From assembly GCA_018335195.1 (NCBI GenBank), contig JAGXKN010000013.1:1941-65940 (forward strand): a stretch of DNA of 64,000 nt. The letters run 5' to 3'. This document shows, one piece after another, positions 24,878 through 29,675 of the stretch. The stretch is from Desulfobacterales bacterium (GTDB taxonomy: Bacteria > Desulfobacterota > Desulfobacteria > Desulfobacterales > Desulfosalsimonadaceae). Position 1 is the first letter of the stretch. The number at the start of each line of letters is the position of its first letter. Below the pieces are notes generated by a model, which did no database searches, was not told the DNA's origin, and saw only the letters and a program-made list of their open reading frames with translations. The translations under genes and the position numbers were made by a program.

Positions 24878-25114
24878 TCAGGAAATCTCTCTTATCCGGA
24901 CCGCATCCAGCGGGCAGGCCTCGATACAGTCCCAGCATCCCATGCACATGTCATGAAAGACCATCGGCGGCTCAAAAGCACCGTCCATCTGTTTCATGAC
25001 TTTATAGGGGCACGCTTGGGCGGCCGCACAAATCCCCGCCTCCGGGTCACATTGCCCCGGATTGCACTTTTCATAGACAACCATGGCAAATGATTTTTTT
25101 GACTGCAGGCTCAT
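24878..25114 (-). CDS. small 4Fe-4S ferredoxin-like protein
   Basis: It has one canonical CMGCWDCIEACP motif and a second Cys group CNPGQC...C...CP. It is divergent from the radical-SAM fusion gene. Confidence 0.7.
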   Translation of the reverse strand: MSLQSKKSFAMVVYEKCNPGQCDPEAGICAAAQACPYKVMKQMDGAFEPPMVFHDMCMGCWDCIEACPLDAVRIREIS

Positions 25115-25532
25115 TGGGTATCCATTATAATTTTTTCAGTATTTTTCCATCCGTCTTCCGACCGGCAACGGACAAATAGCATATTCTATCCGCTGTGACC
25201 AGAAAGGCTTCAGATAAATGAGGGCCGTTTGAAAGCTTTGCCGCCCGGTGGAAAGCAGCAGCACGGCCGATAGCGTGATCACGGGATTCCCTTTTCCATC
25301 ACATCATGGGACCTTATTGCAGCTTCGGGCCTACCGGCTTCAAGGACAAATGTCAAGTTTGCAATGCTGCCGCACGGGATTATCTTGGAGCCATGACCCG
25401 CTGTTTCTGCAATCCGGTCAAGGCGTCACTTTTCCGCCCGGCGCCGATACCGGCGGAATCTACCGGTACGGCTTGCCGTATAGCTGCGCTCGGCCTTGTT
25501 CGATATGATTACATCAATTCCGGGAGAATGAC

Positions 25533-28500
25533 ATGACTTCACTAAAGCGCTTGACATTTGAACAAACCCCGATCTATGTGCTGTCCGACCGGCCGGAATG
25601 GTTTGTGCCCGATCCGGCCGGAGACAGGCTCCTTTCAAACAGGCAAGCCAAGCCCGAAAACAGCCGGGAGCCAATGGAAGACATTCGGCACCAGCAGTTT
25701 TTCTCCCTCCTGCCGACCGCGGATCAACAGTCATACACCGGCCGCAGCGACTACCTGGAACTCGAGGGCCTCGAGGAATGCTGGCTGCACATCACGGATC
25801 AATGCAACCTTAGCTGCCGGCACTGCCTGTTTTCCTGCTCCGGTCAAACGCGAACCGCCCTGTCCCTGGCATCCGTTGAGCATGTCTTCGACCAGGCCTG
25901 CAGCCTCGGTGCGCGCGTGTTTTACCTCACCGGCGGAGAACCTATGATGCACCCGGATTTCAGGCAAATCTGCAGCCGCATCTTAACCGCCCGGACTGAT
26001 ACGCACCTGGTCATACTGACCAACGGATTGCTGCTGCCGCAGTTCATGGATCTTTTTAAAACCCTTCCCCAACAGCGCCTGCACCTGCAGATCAGCATCG
26101 ACGGCCGGGAAAAGGCACATGATGGACTCCGGGGGGCCGGTACATTCCAAAAACTGATGAAGGCAATGGAGCCCCTGGCCGATCTTGACACCCAAAAAAC
26201 CCTGGCCATGGCTGTTCATAGCGGCAATGCCGGGCAGATGGCCGACATCGTGGAGCTGGCCGCAAGGCATCGCATCTCCAGGGTACACTACCTCTGGCTC
26301 ATGATCACGGGCAACGCCGCACCCAATTCCTTTGTGCCGCCGCACCAATTGTTTGACGAACTGATCCGGGCCTGCATAGTAGCTGAGCAACGCGGGGTCA
26401 CGGTCGACAACATGGAAAACATGGCAAACCAGGTTTTTTCCGCGCCCGGAACCAAGCATGACCTTGGCAATGCCGGCTGGACATCCCTGGCGGTAGGCCC
26501 GGACGGAAATGTGTATCCCACCCCGGCGCTGATCGGCCAAATGCAGACCCGGTGCGGGCACATCTCGGAAGGCATGGAAAATCTCTGGAAAAACAGTGCG
26601 GCCTTAAAGGACCTTCGCCGGAGTTCTCTTATCCAGAGTCCGGCATATGCGGACAACCCCCTGAAATTCATCGTGGGCGGCGGCGACATTGACCACAGCT
26701 TTTACGCAGGCGGAGAACTTATCGGGCAGGATCCGTATTTGCCGCTATATAACCTCATGGCGCTCTGGCTGATCCACCGGGCAGTCCGGCAAAGCTTATC
26801 AACCAGGGGCCCGCGGATCCTGCTGAGAATGGGCGACCAGCTTCGGCAGTGCCATCAGGACGGCCGGGGCGTGTCTCTGACACACTCGAACTGCGTGCTC
26901 ACGTTTGCCGACACCAAGCGGATGGTGGGCGATTTTTACAACAATGCGGCGCAAAACCTGAACACGGATATTTCCAATCCGGTTTGCTACCCGGAGGACA
27001 CCATGGCGCATATCCCCGAAGCTTCCCGGATCCGCTCCTACGGCTGCGGCAGTCCCGTTCTCGACGCCGCCCCGGCCGCGGACCAGACCGTGGTGGACCT
27101 GGGTGCGGGCGCCGGCCTGGAATGCTTTATCGCGGCCCGACAGGTCGGGAAAAACGGGTGCGTCATCGGAATCGACATGCTCGATGAAATGATTTGCCGG
27201 GCCGAGCAGTCCGCCGAAGCCGTTGCGCAAAATCTGGGTTACAGAAACGTACGCTTTGAAAAGGGCTTTCTCGAAGAAATCCCCCTTGCAGATCAAACCG
27301 CGGACTTGGTCATCTCCAACTGTGTGATCAATCTTTCCGAAGACAAACGCAAAACGTTTTCCGAGATAATGCGGGTTTTAAAACCCGGGGGCCGGATCGT
27401 GATTTCGGACGTGGTCACGGATGCGCAGATGACGCCGGAAATCGCAAACGATGAAAAACTTCGCGGCGAATGCATCGCCGGTGCCATGCGCCAGGAGTAT
27501 CTTGTGGCCATGCTCGAGGACGCAGGATTCGGCCGGATTCAAATCCTGAAGCGCTTTTTTTACCGAAAAGTCCAGAATCACGCCTTTTATTCGCTGACCT
27601 ACAGCGCCCGCAGACCCGGGGCCGCAGAAAGCCGCCGGGTCATCTACCCGGGCCCCTATACCGCGGCGCTCACCGACAGCGGAGAAGTGCTGCTCCGGGG
27701 TCGGCCGTACACCGTGGCCTGGCCATGGGCCGCTCATGAAGATACTTCCGTGCTGGTACTCGACGAGCAGGGCAATGCCGAAAACCTTTCTTCGGAAAAC
27801 ACCTGCACCTGTTACACGCCGCCGGAAAATACCCGCTACCCGGCTCCGGATCTTCAGATCAAATCCGCTCCGCCCGCCGCCCTGTATCCGCACGGCGGCG
27901 AACTGCCCCACCCGGTGGACTGCATGCAGTGCGGAAAACCACTGATATACCTGAACCGGGAAGAACCCCGGGCTTGCGCGTTCTGTGGAGATACCGGCCG
28001 GGCCAACGCCGTCTGCGAGGCCGGCCATTTTGTCTGCGATGCATGCCACACCCGGGATGCGGGCGGAATCGTCAGCCAGGTCTGCAAACACACGAATCAG
28101 GCAGAGATGATCCCGCTGCTTGACACCATTCGCAGCCACCCGGCTTTTGCCGTTCACGGCCCTGAGCATCATTTTGCCGTGCCCGCCGTAATCGTGGCCG
28201 CTTTTGGCAACATGGGCGGAAACATCTCGGATGAAGACATTCAAACCGCCATGGATCGCGGCCGGTCGGTTCCGGGCGGGGTCTGCGCCTTCTGGGGCGC
28301 CTGCGGCGCGGCCGTGGGCGTGGGCATCGGATTCGGCGTGATTCTGCAGAGCAACCCCTTAAAGCCCGATCCGCGCCAGATGGTCCAGAAGGCGGTGGGC
28401 GCAATAATCGGTGAAATCGCGGAAACCAGGGCTGCCCGGTGCTGCCGGCGCGAATCCTATACGTCACTGATCCATGCGGCCCGGTGGTCCGGACACATCC

Positions 28501-28628: not shown

Positions 28629-28763
28629 TACCCGATGTCTGCAGTTTTCTGATTTTGGACTTGATTCCCCGCATGTGCCGTGGAATGATCAGCCCGCATA
28701 TGACCGGAGGCCCATTTGTGTATCCGCTGTTTCGAAAACTGAGGCATTCACGGAAACCAGCCC

Positions 28764-29675
28764 ATGATCACATCCCGAGTCCAAAGGCAGGCACACGGCA
28801 GAATTCCGCTGCAGCTCAAGGGCGTCTTCATGACCCTGCTGGGGGCCTTTTGTTTCTCCCTGGTACCCATATGGGTGCGGGCCATTGAAGCCTACACCCC
28901 GGTGAGCATTGTCTTTTACCGGGCCTTAATCGGTATCTGCCCGCTTCTTTTTTGGACCATGCGGAGTCCGCAGATGCGCGCCCGGGCTTCGGTAACCCGG
29001 CTGGACTGGAAATACCGTCTGGTCCTGCTCGGGGTGGGGCTTTCCATGTGCGGCACCGCATCCACGTATTACCTGGCCATCATGAACACCTCGGTGGCCA
29101 AGGCGGTACTGCTGCACTATACCGCACCGATCTATGTCGCCATAATCAGCCCGGTGCTGCTCAAGGAAAAAAACGCCCCCCTGACCTGGTTTGCCGTGGG
29201 CGCGGGCCTGCTGGGAACAGCCCTGATCACGGATCCTGCAACCCTTTTTACAGCGGACCCCGATGAGATCATCGGGATCATCAGTGCCGCGGTATCCGGG
29301 CTGTGCCTGTCCGGCGTGTTTCTGTTCGGCCGTTTCCTGGCTGGTCACCTGCCGTCCCAGGTCCGTACGCTCTGGGGGTGCGTGATCGTGGCGGTGCTGC
29401 TTTTGCCCTGGGGCCTCCAGGTACCGGCCGGGTATTTCTGGCAAAATCTCCCGTGGCTCTGCCTGCTCGGAACCGTTTCCCTGGCGCTGCCGTATACCCT
29501 TTTCTTCAAGGGGCAGAATTACATCTCCGCCCAGGCGGCTTCGCTGATCTCCTTATTTGAACCGGTTTGCGGAATCGGCATCGGATTTCTGTTTTTCGCG
29601 GAAAAACTCACCCTGACGGGGTCTCTGGGTGCGGCCATCGTGCTTTTTAGCATCTATATCGCCAGCCGCAGATAA
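28764..29675 (+). CDS. DMT superfamily (EamA-like) transporter
   Basis: About 10 TM helices with two EamA-like halves (LLGAFCFSLVPIWVR; LFEPVCGIGIGFLFF). Confidence 0.8.
   Translation: MITSRVQRQAHGRIPLQLKGVFMTLLGAFCFSLVPIWVRAIEAYTPVSIVFYRALIGICPLLFWTMRSPQMRARASVTRLDWKYRLVLLGVGLSMCGTASTYYLAIMNTSVAKAVLLHYTAPIYVAIISPVLLKEKNAPLTWFAVGAGLLGTALITDPATLFTADPDEIIGIISAAVSGLCLSGVFLFGRFLAGHLPSQVRTLWGCVIVAVLLLPWGLQVPAGYFWQNLPWLCLLGTVSLALPYTLFFKGQNYISAQAASLISLFEPVCGIGIGFLFFAEKLTLTGSLGAAIVLFSIYIASRR

Follow-up and report, generated by a model that had tools for sequence, protein, structure and literature searches.

A radical SAM domain, an ArsM-type methyltransferase and DUF5714 fused in one protein of Desulfobacterales: a candidate route to organoarsenicals in anaerobes

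Can the methylation of arsenic and the radical formation of a further carbon–arsenic bond be combined in a single polypeptide? This question is raised by a gene in a 64,000-nucleotide stretch of DNA from a Desulfobacterales bacterium (GenBank assembly GCA_018335195.1, contig JAGXKN010000013.1, positions 1,941 to 65,940 of the forward strand), the whole of which is called the window and numbered from its first letter. The known routes to carbon–arsenic compounds, ArsS with ArsM for arsenosugars and ArsL with ArsM for arsinothricin, rely on separate enzymes, and the organisms studied are cyanobacteria and aerobic soil bacteria. Here, a radical S-adenosylmethionine (SAM) domain, an ArsM-type methyltransferase and a DUF5714 domain follow one another in 1031 residues. 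An earlier note, made from the letters of this DNA, had proposed that the gene forms a compact organoarsenical module with a ferredoxin of its own and an EamA exporter. We conclude that the gene belongs to an uncharacterised family of radical SAM/ArsM fusions, in its three-domain form of the Desulfobacterales type. The fused enzyme may methylate As(III), add a further C–As bond and feed an arsenosugar-like, possibly lipid-linked pathway, a reading to which we give a probability of roughly 45%. The gene consists of the following parts:

25533 to 28628, forward strand: fusion gene, 1031 residues, radical SAM – ArsM-type methyltransferase – DUF5714 (GenBank MBS3755292.1)
25533 to 26822, forward strand: radical SAM domain, residues 1 to about 430, in which a TIM-barrel core stands between a conserved N-terminal extension and a C-terminal part of SPASM/twitch-like type (Pfam, NCBIfam, Foldseek)
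25803 to 25826, forward strand: CX3CX2C motif (C91, C95, C98), predicted site of the radical SAM [4Fe-4S] cluster
26850 to 26894, forward strand: invariant cysteine pair C440...C454 (THSNC454VL), joining the radical SAM and methyltransferase domains (family alignment)
26925 to 27812, forward strand: complete ArsM-type module, residues about 465-760, with N-terminal segment, Rossmann SAM-binding domain and ArsM C-terminal domain (NCBIfam, PDB, Foldseek)
27045 to 27473, forward strand: codons of the predicted As(III)-binding cysteines C505 (27045-27047), C597 (27321-27323) and C647 (27471-27473), from alignment to CmArsM
27795 to 27917, forward strand: linker of about 40 residues (755-795) tethering DUF5714
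27918 to 28625, forward strand: DUF5714 domain (Pfam)

The open reading frame is uninterrupted, starts with ATG and has a Shine-Dalgarno-like GGGAG motif 8 nt upstream. Exactly this protein is deposited as MBS3755292.1 from a Desulfobacterales metagenome-assembled genome, where it is labelled merely 'methyltransferase domain-containing protein'. The three domains read from the letters in the earlier note are borne out by Pfam, with Radical_SAM (PF04055) at residues 87-242 (66.3 bits against a cut-off of 29.5), Methyltransf_31 at 517-665 (110.6 bits) and DUF5714 (PF18978) at 848-1018 (184.5 bits against 26.2, profile positions 2-172 of 173). GPDGNVYPTPALIG, VVDLGAGAG (519-527), ISNCVINLSEDK and RVLKPGGRIVISDV were all found in the translation, together with C505, C597 and C647. 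The full-length AlphaFold model has a predicted local distance difference test score (pLDDT) of 81.8 and a predicted template modelling score (pTM) of 0.70. A fusion created by an assembly artefact or a frameshift is ruled out by 118 full-length homologues with the same domain order; one of the relatives (P0001) aligns end to end at 69% identity. An Rfam scan of the window detected no riboswitch or other RNA element 5' of the gene.

The methyltransferase is of the ArsM type as judged by sequence, profiles, predicted fold and conserved cysteines. Seven of the eight best NCBIfam matches of the fusion are ArsM-type models, the exception being MbdU on the DUF5714 region. The ArsM models score 215, 164, 129 and 125 bits, compared to 76 bits for the best non-ArsM methyltransferase model. 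The top match, PRK11873, spans residues 475-681, and the arsinothricin ArsM profile is matched up to position 349 of 356 (residues 585-752), indicating that the ArsM-specific C-terminal domain is present. In the family alignment the module ends at a conserved C758-x-C760. A sequence search of the PDB returned CmArsM first (E 9e-32), followed by CrArsM and human AS3MT. When the full-length model was compared with the PDB by Foldseek, ranks 1-13 were all taken by ArsM or AS3MT (E 1.5e-18 to 5e-17), with alignments of 272-282 columns over chains of 300-330 residues that include the C-terminal domain; the best other methyltransferase follows at E 1e-11. The fused domain is 39% identical to CmArsM and shares on average 45% identity with 66 plain prokaryotic ArsMs, to which the characterised CmArsM itself averages 40%. 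In a midpoint-rooted neighbour-joining tree of the methyltransferase domains, fused and plain ArsMs are not separated into clades, and only the three-domain forms group together.

The three cysteines that had been singled out as As(III) ligands fall into place: YGC505, SNC597 and GEC647 align with C72, C174 and C224 of CmArsM (HMMER, PDB 4fr0/4kw7). Conservation was counted over 118 three-domain relatives (at least 950 residues, 44-69% identity) and 86 two-domain relatives, 204 in all. The triad is kept in 117-118 of the former and 82-86 of the latter, and likewise in 65-66 of the 66 plain ArsMs. On three of the points on which the earlier note had staked its idea, the methyltransferase thus lies inside the ArsM radiation, the triad is conserved among orthologues and the fusion is genuine. 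Methylation of As(III) by the module is predicted from homology. Similar to ArsM/AS3MT enzymes (CmArsM 4fr0/4fsd/6cx6, CrArsM 5evj, human AS3MT 8xt7), it has the common fold over about 275 residues, the glycine-rich SAM motif and the As(III) cysteine triad. It differs from them as an internal module placed between a radical SAM domain and DUF5714, by the extra conserved CxC after its C-terminal domain and by a C44 equivalent that is not kept family-wide.

The radical SAM domain belongs to a SPASM/twitch-like branch. Its CX3CX2C motif, which the earlier note had located correctly, is near-invariant (118 of 118 three-domain and 83 of 86 two-domain relatives), and the domain is modelled at high pLDDT within the full-length protein. 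A Pfam SPASM match at 314-362 stays below the cut-off (17.8 versus 21.5 bits). In agreement with the earlier description, the family alignment has the auxiliary-cluster cysteines replaced; the conserved cysteines after the core are C341 (partly), C440 and C454. The best NCBIfam models are Rv1681, MftC, ScmE and AhbD (76-85 bits), and the fold matches obtained with Foldseek are CteB, SkfB, PqqE, BlsE, anSME and SuiB. A divergent ArsS can be ruled out at the profile level: TIGR04167 reaches 55.4 bits against a cut-off of 300 and matches the core alone (residues 78-218 to profile positions 5-146), and 21 other radical SAM models outscore it. No ArsL model is found among the best 25 NCBIfam matches of the domain, no direct comparison with ArsL having been made. 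The parallel that had been drawn to the known C–As pathways therefore does not extend to homology, as the domain is related to ArsS only in the common core; the analogy is one of inferred function.

The junction between the two domains carries the invariant pair C440 and C454 (C440 in 117 of 118 and 83 of 86, C454 in 118 of 118 and 86 of 86 three- and two-domain relatives, respectively), at moderate pLDDT. From its conservation we regard this pair as a candidate second arsenic-binding or hand-over site. The junction motif THSNC454VL (26880-26900, residues 450-456) resembles the ArsM arsenic-binding motif ISNC597VINL; it may have been left over from a duplication, or an As(III)-thiolate site may have arisen there by convergence.

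The linker that attaches DUF5714 has a pLDDT of 29-52 in the full-length model and is gapped and variable in the family alignment. The domain starts with a four-cysteine beta-hairpin (C797, C800, C815, C818), followed by a C828/H832/C835/C838/H839 site and a helical bundle with HGPEHH, C918-x5-C924-GAxxG, the vicinal C970-C971, C1002, C1011 and C1016; about 18 cysteines and histidines are invariant. An AlphaFold2 model of DUF5714 from 31 stand-alone homologues reaches a pLDDT of 92.1 and a pTM of 0.88, and its comparison with the PDB by Foldseek gave no structural relative (best E 2.4). The sole named relative is the NCBIfam family MbdU (NF045648), which has a CU motif and is predicted to be a 'metal-binding double selenoprotein'; it matches residues 796-1024 with 121 bits, under its cut-off. 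Aligned by hhalign with one C-GCAxxG-C-C domain (PF09719/TIGR01909), the DUF5714 profile has its motifs in register at a weak E of 0.014 and a probability of 3%; the Pfam scan gave no match to a C-GCAxxG-C-C family at E<=0.01. A literature search found no paper naming DUF5714.

More than 120 database clusters, 44-69% identical, have the three-domain order, mainly in Desulfobacterota including the genera Desulfobacter, Desulfoluna, Desulfosarcina and Dissulfurirhabdus. Two-domain radical SAM–ArsM proteins of 700-823 residues occur in Desulfobulbales, Acidobacteriota, Planctomycetota, Omnitrophota, Brocadiales and Solidesulfovibrio. When the radical SAM domain was searched alone, nearly all close relatives were already fused to the same methyltransferase and few stood alone. 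For DUF5714 alone, the relatives number more than 1,400, most of them stand-alone proteins of 220-270 residues. Because the close radical SAM relatives are mostly methyltransferase-fused and DUF5714 is mostly stand-alone, the radical SAM–ArsM pair is the evolutionary core and DUF5714 a lineage-specific addition. An exhaustive search with the radical SAM family gave 111 representative clusters at E<=1e-30, rising to 3,522 at 1e-10; the family is small and has sharp bounds. Given its 118 three-domain and 86 two-domain relatives, the fusion is in all appearance ancient and under selection. Annotations of the relatives are all generic, and no paper on a radical SAM–ArsM fusion was found in the literature search, in line with the earlier impression that the architecture had not been described as an enzyme. 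The logic of combining a radical SAM enzyme with ArsM is known; new here are the non-homologous radical SAM domain, the fusion itself and a domain of new fold.

What the fusion works with can be read from other genomes. Open reading frames within 6 kb of 67 fusion genes were clustered all against all in an unbiased manner. Two neighbour sets recur most: a MerA-like flavoprotein together with VTT/DedA, in 15 loci, and a DUF2064/GT2 pair, in 12 loci, with a divergent DUF2064 cluster in 6 further loci. The window contains all of the following partners (at 48-52 kb and 62-64 kb), spread over 40 kb:

48180 to 49022, reverse strand: FA_hydroxylase-family membrane enzyme (OlsE-like), with homologues 51% identical near relatives of the fusion
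49050 to 49742, forward strand: TIGR04282 (DUF2064, CofC-like) 'arsenosugar biosynthesis glycosyltransferase' (197 bits, cut-off 134)
49769 to 50488, forward strand: TIGR04283 (glycosyltransferase family GT2, MftF-like) 'arsenosugar biosynthesis glycosyltransferase' (231.6 bits, cut-off 182)
50730 to 51641, reverse strand: DUF3047 protein (Pfam, 277.6 bits)
62056 to 63561, forward strand: MerA-like/dihydrolipoamide-dehydrogenase-like flavoprotein disulfide reductase (Pyr_redox_2, 203 bits; PRK06370.1-3, 445 bits)
63574 to 64000, forward strand: membrane protein of the VTT/DedA family, truncated by the end of the window (Pfam VTT_dom)

A tight operon of the order [VTT-]Pyr_redox – fusion – DUF2064 – DUF3047 – GT2 is present in Desulfobacter hydrogenophilus (L085 among the loci compared) and in L172 and L173, with the flavoprotein directly 5' of the fusion and DUF3047 within the operon. 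L083 has a fusion – DUF2064 – GT2 operon, and the fusion operon of L099 adds DUF3047, MsrA, MsrB, FA_hydroxylase, VTT and rhodanese. The TIGR04282 gene adjoins the fusion in these five loci and in others; TIGR04282, TIGR04283 and the fusion are tightly packed in the same five and near one another in at least 10 further loci. In L097 and L099 the fusion has a homologue of the FA_hydroxylase gene (51% identity) as a neighbour, as does a plain ArsM in L040; in other loci the VTT/DedA protein and the flavoprotein are encoded side by side or as one fused protein. DUF2064, GT2 or DUF3047 is found within 10 kb in 15 of 66 fusion loci, a lower bound given that many loci are short contigs, compared to none of 66 plain-ArsM loci (Fisher p = 2.5e-5). 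The fusion is the only radical SAM enzyme in the annotated clusters L081-L086, L099 and L171-L173; in the window its domain is likewise the only radical SAM signature, and there is no second ArsM. The earlier note had mentioned the DUF2064/GT2 pair in passing. Its two members exceed the TIGR04282 and TIGR04283 cut-offs, and the organoarsenical idea gains support because this distant pair is a conserved operon partner in other genomes.

Some further genes lie around these partners. In the window, a conserved lipid-modification-type cluster at 40353-47115 (DUF2177, chalcone-isomerase-like, MFS_2, DUF1295, amine oxidase, DUF1365, cyclopropane-fatty-acid synthase) is located directly 5' of the FA_hydroxylase/TIGR04282/TIGR04283/DUF3047 group, and a MerR regulator with a flavin mononucleotide (FMN) reductase follows DUF3047 at 51938-52985. 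The L099 operon is flanked by a triple-rhodanese protein (8555-9718, reverse strand) and a 'dicluster-binding, near-Sec' CCG-type protein (1796-2908, forward strand); several of the neighbours in L099 come from families in which selenoproteins are frequent.

From these elements we propose the following order of events. The ArsM module would bind As(III) at C505/C597/C647 and, by homology, methylate it with SAM. The methylated trivalent arsenical would be handed, possibly through C440/C454, to the radical SAM domain, which would cleave a second SAM reductively at the C91/C95/C98 [4Fe-4S] cluster and form a further C–As bond. The likeliest reaction would be addition of a 5'-deoxyadenosyl radical, ArsS-like though the domain is not an ArsS homologue. 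On its flexible linker, DUF5714 may serve the enzyme as an internal relay, redox-active or metal(loid)-binding, and might reduce the disulfide formed during ArsM catalysis or supply electrons to the cluster, by analogy with the AhpD and DUF2284 domains on other ArsMs and with the thioredoxin genes beside two-domain forms. One polypeptide would stand in the place of separate ArsM and ArsS enzymes, and its product would be processed by TIGR04282, TIGR04283, DUF3047, the flavoprotein–DedA pair and the membrane FA_hydroxylase. The DedA, FA_hydroxylase and GT2 partners suggest that the end product is associated with the membrane and resembles an arsenosugar or an arsenolipid. As to the known enzymes, ArsM methylates As(III) bound to its cysteine triad, ArsS joins a 5'-deoxyadenosyl radical with dimethylarsenic to DDMAA, 5'-deoxy-5'-dimethylarsinoyl-adenosine, which is the arsenosugar precursor, and ArsL adds a 3-amino-3-carboxypropyl (ACP) radical to As(III) (bioRxiv 10.64898/2026.04.29.721666).

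The ArsS/ArsM arsenosugar pathway has the combination of ArsM with a radical SAM enzyme and the TIGR04282/TIGR04283 accessory genes in common with the present system. It differs in that the fusion unites both activities in one polypeptide with a SPASM/twitch-like domain that is not an ArsS homologue, that it occurs mostly in strict anaerobes (Desulfobacterota, Nitrospirota, Acidobacteriota) instead of in cyanobacteria or algae, and that DUF5714, DUF3047 and the flavoprotein–DedA pair are added. A more detailed proposal would be an ArsS-independent arsenosugar/arsenolipid synthase of anaerobes (sulfate reducers, Nitrospirota, Acidobacteriota). In this proposal As(III) methylation is followed by an As–C5' (or other As–C) bond, made by a SPASM-derived radical SAM domain that lacks the auxiliary clusters and has gained an arsenic-binding cysteine pair, with DUF5714 as relay and with TIGR04282, TIGR04283, DUF3047, DedA and FA_hydroxylase building membrane-linked organoarsenicals. 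Taken in full, we offer it tentatively and at odds well short of even.

If the fused enzyme indeed makes C–As bonds, radical chemistry has been recruited to arsenic convergently in sulfate reducers and other anaerobes, and the fusion would be a natural case of substrate channelling for oxidation-prone trivalent dimethylarsenic, DMAs(III). A possible, so far unrecognised anoxic source of complex organoarsenicals in sediments and paddy soils would come into view, and DUF5714, DUF2064/TIGR04282, TIGR04283, DUF3047 and the DedA–flavoprotein pair, five widespread 'unknown' families, would receive testable functions. Desulfobacter hydrogenophilus, as a cultured carrier of the tight operon, provides an experimental handle.

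Several points weigh against organoarsenical synthesis, and every function beyond 'ArsM-like' and 'radical SAM' is one that we infer. The fusion reaches the curated NCBIfam cut-off of no ArsM model (PRK11873 215 versus 263 bits, NF040538 164 versus 500, the arsenosugar ArsM NF038099 125 versus 400), these cut-offs being tuned to complete proteins that stand alone. The fourth, N-terminal cysteine of CmArsM (C44), which takes part in the disulfide cascade, has a poorly conserved equivalent: C485, at about this place in the fusion, is kept in 97 of 118 three-domain relatives and a counterpart in 8 of 86 two-domain forms. Functional ArsMs without it have been reported (Huang et al., 2018, as related in PMC6776024). 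The radical SAM domain resembles peptide- and cofactor-modifying SPASM/twitch enzymes, and its likeness to ArsS is generic core similarity. Three of seven three-domain contexts (L081, L086, L171) are without the partners, and in the window the partners are 20-35 kb from the fusion, the TIGR04282/TIGR04283 pair 20.4 kb downstream. An IS110-family transposase (34681-36072, reverse strand), in a lower-GC stretch at 34-38 kb (0.47-0.49 versus about 0.55), lies between fusion and partners and could explain the dispersal. Neither an arsenic-responsive regulator such as ArsR nor an ars resistance gene nor a thioredoxin gene was seen in the window. Finally, the MsrAB, rhodanese and disulfide reductase neighbours would be just as compatible with chemistry on sulfur or selenium.

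The 'arsenosugar' names of TIGR04282 and TIGR04283 must be counted here as well, as they are assigned by guilt by association and TIGR04282 is a 'hypoth_equivalog'. In L163 both genes stand beside a different, short radical SAM protein, with no ArsM nearby; the pair therefore partners several radical SAM types. That locus (4570-10397) comprises CysK fused to a C-GCAxxG-C-C domain, the 297-residue radical SAM protein (Rv1681-like 110 bits, ArsS 71 bits, both under cut-off), TIGR04283, TIGR04282, DedA and a flippase-like protein. In L040 (7139-10597, a Thiohalophilus metagenome-assembled genome), a plain ArsM is preceded by an ArsR–rhodanese fusion regulator, with FA_hydroxylase and VTT–rhodanese genes divergent, and the same accessory genes thus also accompany an unfused ArsM. 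Neither L163 nor L040 contains a canonical ArsS cluster for comparison.

The gene could instead serve anaerobic detoxification only, with ArsM methylating arsenic to volatile or less toxic species and the radical SAM and DUF5714 domains assisting the methylation cycle without making a new type of C–As bond. They could do so by providing low-potential electrons or disulfide reduction in place of thioredoxin or glutathione, or by a radical third or fourth methylation. The strong ArsM assignment suits this explanation, as does the recurrent fusion of ArsM-type methyltransferases of anaerobes to Cys/Sec-rich redox or metal-binding domains in the NCBIfam families ArsM/AhpD (NF041537), ArsM/DUF2284 (NF041536) and MTase/UXPK-star (NF047649). 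The present protein shares this principle with them and the DUF5714-like region with MbdU; in contrast to the fusion, none of the four has a radical SAM domain, and the fusion misses their cut-offs widely and uses Cys, not Sec. Thioredoxin genes lie directly 5' of two-domain fusions in nine loci, and the frequent absence of the C44-equivalent cysteine makes another reductant plausible. Sulfate reducers have been implicated in anoxic arsenic methylation (PMC6776024). However, a whole radical SAM domain with an invariant SAM-cleaving cluster would be a costly electron supply, it is left unexplained why operons join the gene to DUF3047 and the nucleotidyl-/glycosyl-transferase pair, and no linked ars resistance genes were seen. 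We know of no radical SAM enzyme that serves purely as a reductase. Detoxification only is thus unlikely in our view. The nine thioredoxin loci are from soil metagenomes (L108, L114, L115, L118, L119 and L121-L124; e.g., L119 2327-2788), and six of them (L115, L119, L121-L124) also carry the divergent DUF2064.

A second possibility is that the substrate is selenium, tellurium or antimony, handled by the three-cysteine site and DUF5714 within a redox-stress or selenium gene set. Conserved neighbours such as MsrA/MsrB, rhodanese, the MerA-like flavoprotein and the 'dicluster-near-Sec' protein would be at home there; the one DUF5714 relative with a name, MbdU, is a predicted double selenoprotein, selenoprotein forms are also frequent for ArsS and several ArsM fusions, and the curated ArsM cut-offs are missed. 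Yet the cysteine triad and the fold are those of enzymes that bind As(III) in crystals (4fsd, 6cx6), and the fused methyltransferase is nearer to typical prokaryotic ArsMs than CmArsM is. PHO4/Pit transporters (phosphate, arsenate) recur near the fusion, in 8 loci, and in L040 an ArsR-type regulator stands beside a plain ArsM with the same FA_hydroxylase and VTT partners. Another metalloid as the substrate is therefore rather improbable.

The radical SAM domain might also act on a protein, peptide or cofactor, such as DUF5714 itself or a metallocofactor, with the methyltransferase modifying a thiol- or metal-bound ligand and not free arsenite. Its closest relatives by sequence and fold (MftC, ScmE, AhbD, CteB, SkfB, PqqE, anSME) would agree with this, and SPASM/twitch maturases give the best match for residues of about 80-400, the beta-hairpin 'GPDG.VYP' region included. 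The flexible tether of DUF5714 would suit such a role, and stand-alone DUF5714 genes are operonic with a radical SAM gene in two of four contexts (L167, L169), which follow no clear rule. However, the auxiliary [4Fe-4S] cysteines typical of peptide-modifying SPASM enzymes are replaced, no peptide substrate gene is present, the domain is fused to ArsM, most family members (the two-domain forms) have no DUF5714, and the strictly conserved As(III)-type triad would be without explanation. We consider this very unlikely. In L167 (4719-6795) the stand-alone DUF5714 gene overlaps by 8 nt the 3' end of a radical SAM gene with an N-terminal Zn_ribbon_HMPTM, near a DVU_1556-like methyltransferase, an AMP-binding enzyme and an Fe-S flavoprotein; this layout hints that DUF5714 partners radical SAM enzymes more generally.

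Two genes flank the fusion immediately:

24878 to 25114, reverse strand: small 2x[4Fe-4S]-type ferredoxin, 78 residues, divergent from the fusion (Fer4, 23.9 bits, weak but above threshold; two four-cysteine motifs)
28764 to 29675, forward strand: EamA permease of the drug/metabolite transporter (DMT) type, starting 135 nt 3' of the fusion stop (EamA, 121.8 bits)

Radical SAM enzymes require a low-potential electron donor, and the arsQML cluster pairs its enzymes with a permease. A self-contained unit in which the ferredoxin reduces the radical SAM cluster and EamA exports the product, as the earlier note had it, would fit both facts and the gene arrangement, no terminator being detected between fusion and EamA, but is hardly probable in view of the absence of any tblastn homologue of either gene near some 66 related loci, L081 with its orthologue at 69% identity among them, and of either gene from the recurrent neighbour clusters, of downstream membrane proteins that vary by lineage (TauE in L081; VTT in L003, L087 and L089), and of promoter and terminator counts at chance level, and thus uninformative, over 24.5-30.2 kb. 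The tblastn search of all loci and the unbiased clustering thus rule out the two genes as conserved partners, and 24878-29675 are therefore not the bounds of a functional module; both genes are present as described, and the compact-module part of the organoarsenical idea fails. In this genome EamA may be co-transcribed with the fusion. Similar to the arsinothricin system (ArsL radical SAM enzyme, ArsM, ArsQ exporter), a radical SAM domain and ArsM are combined and a permease adjoins in the window; in contrast, arsinothricin-type ArsM models are far under their cut-offs on the fusion (164 versus 500 and 86 versus 240), and the permease is of the EamA type and not conserved with it.

YgaP-like, ModA-like and PilZ genes of the window likewise have no homologue in the related loci and belong to no recurrent neighbour cluster. 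The PilZ-domain gene is located at 23186-23611 and a GGDEF gene at 32637-33881. The Rfam scan gave two matches in the window. The first is a cyclic di-guanosine monophosphate riboswitch of the c-di-GMP-I type (GGC variant) at 13.5 kb (13490-13571, forward strand, 65.7 bits against a gathering threshold of 59), at the start of the open reading frame 13539-14288. The second, at 39.7 kb, is a transfer RNA (tRNA) gene (39735-39808, forward strand, 60.6 bits) that adjoins a pyridoxal-phosphate-dependent enzyme of Cys/Met metabolism (38463-39653).

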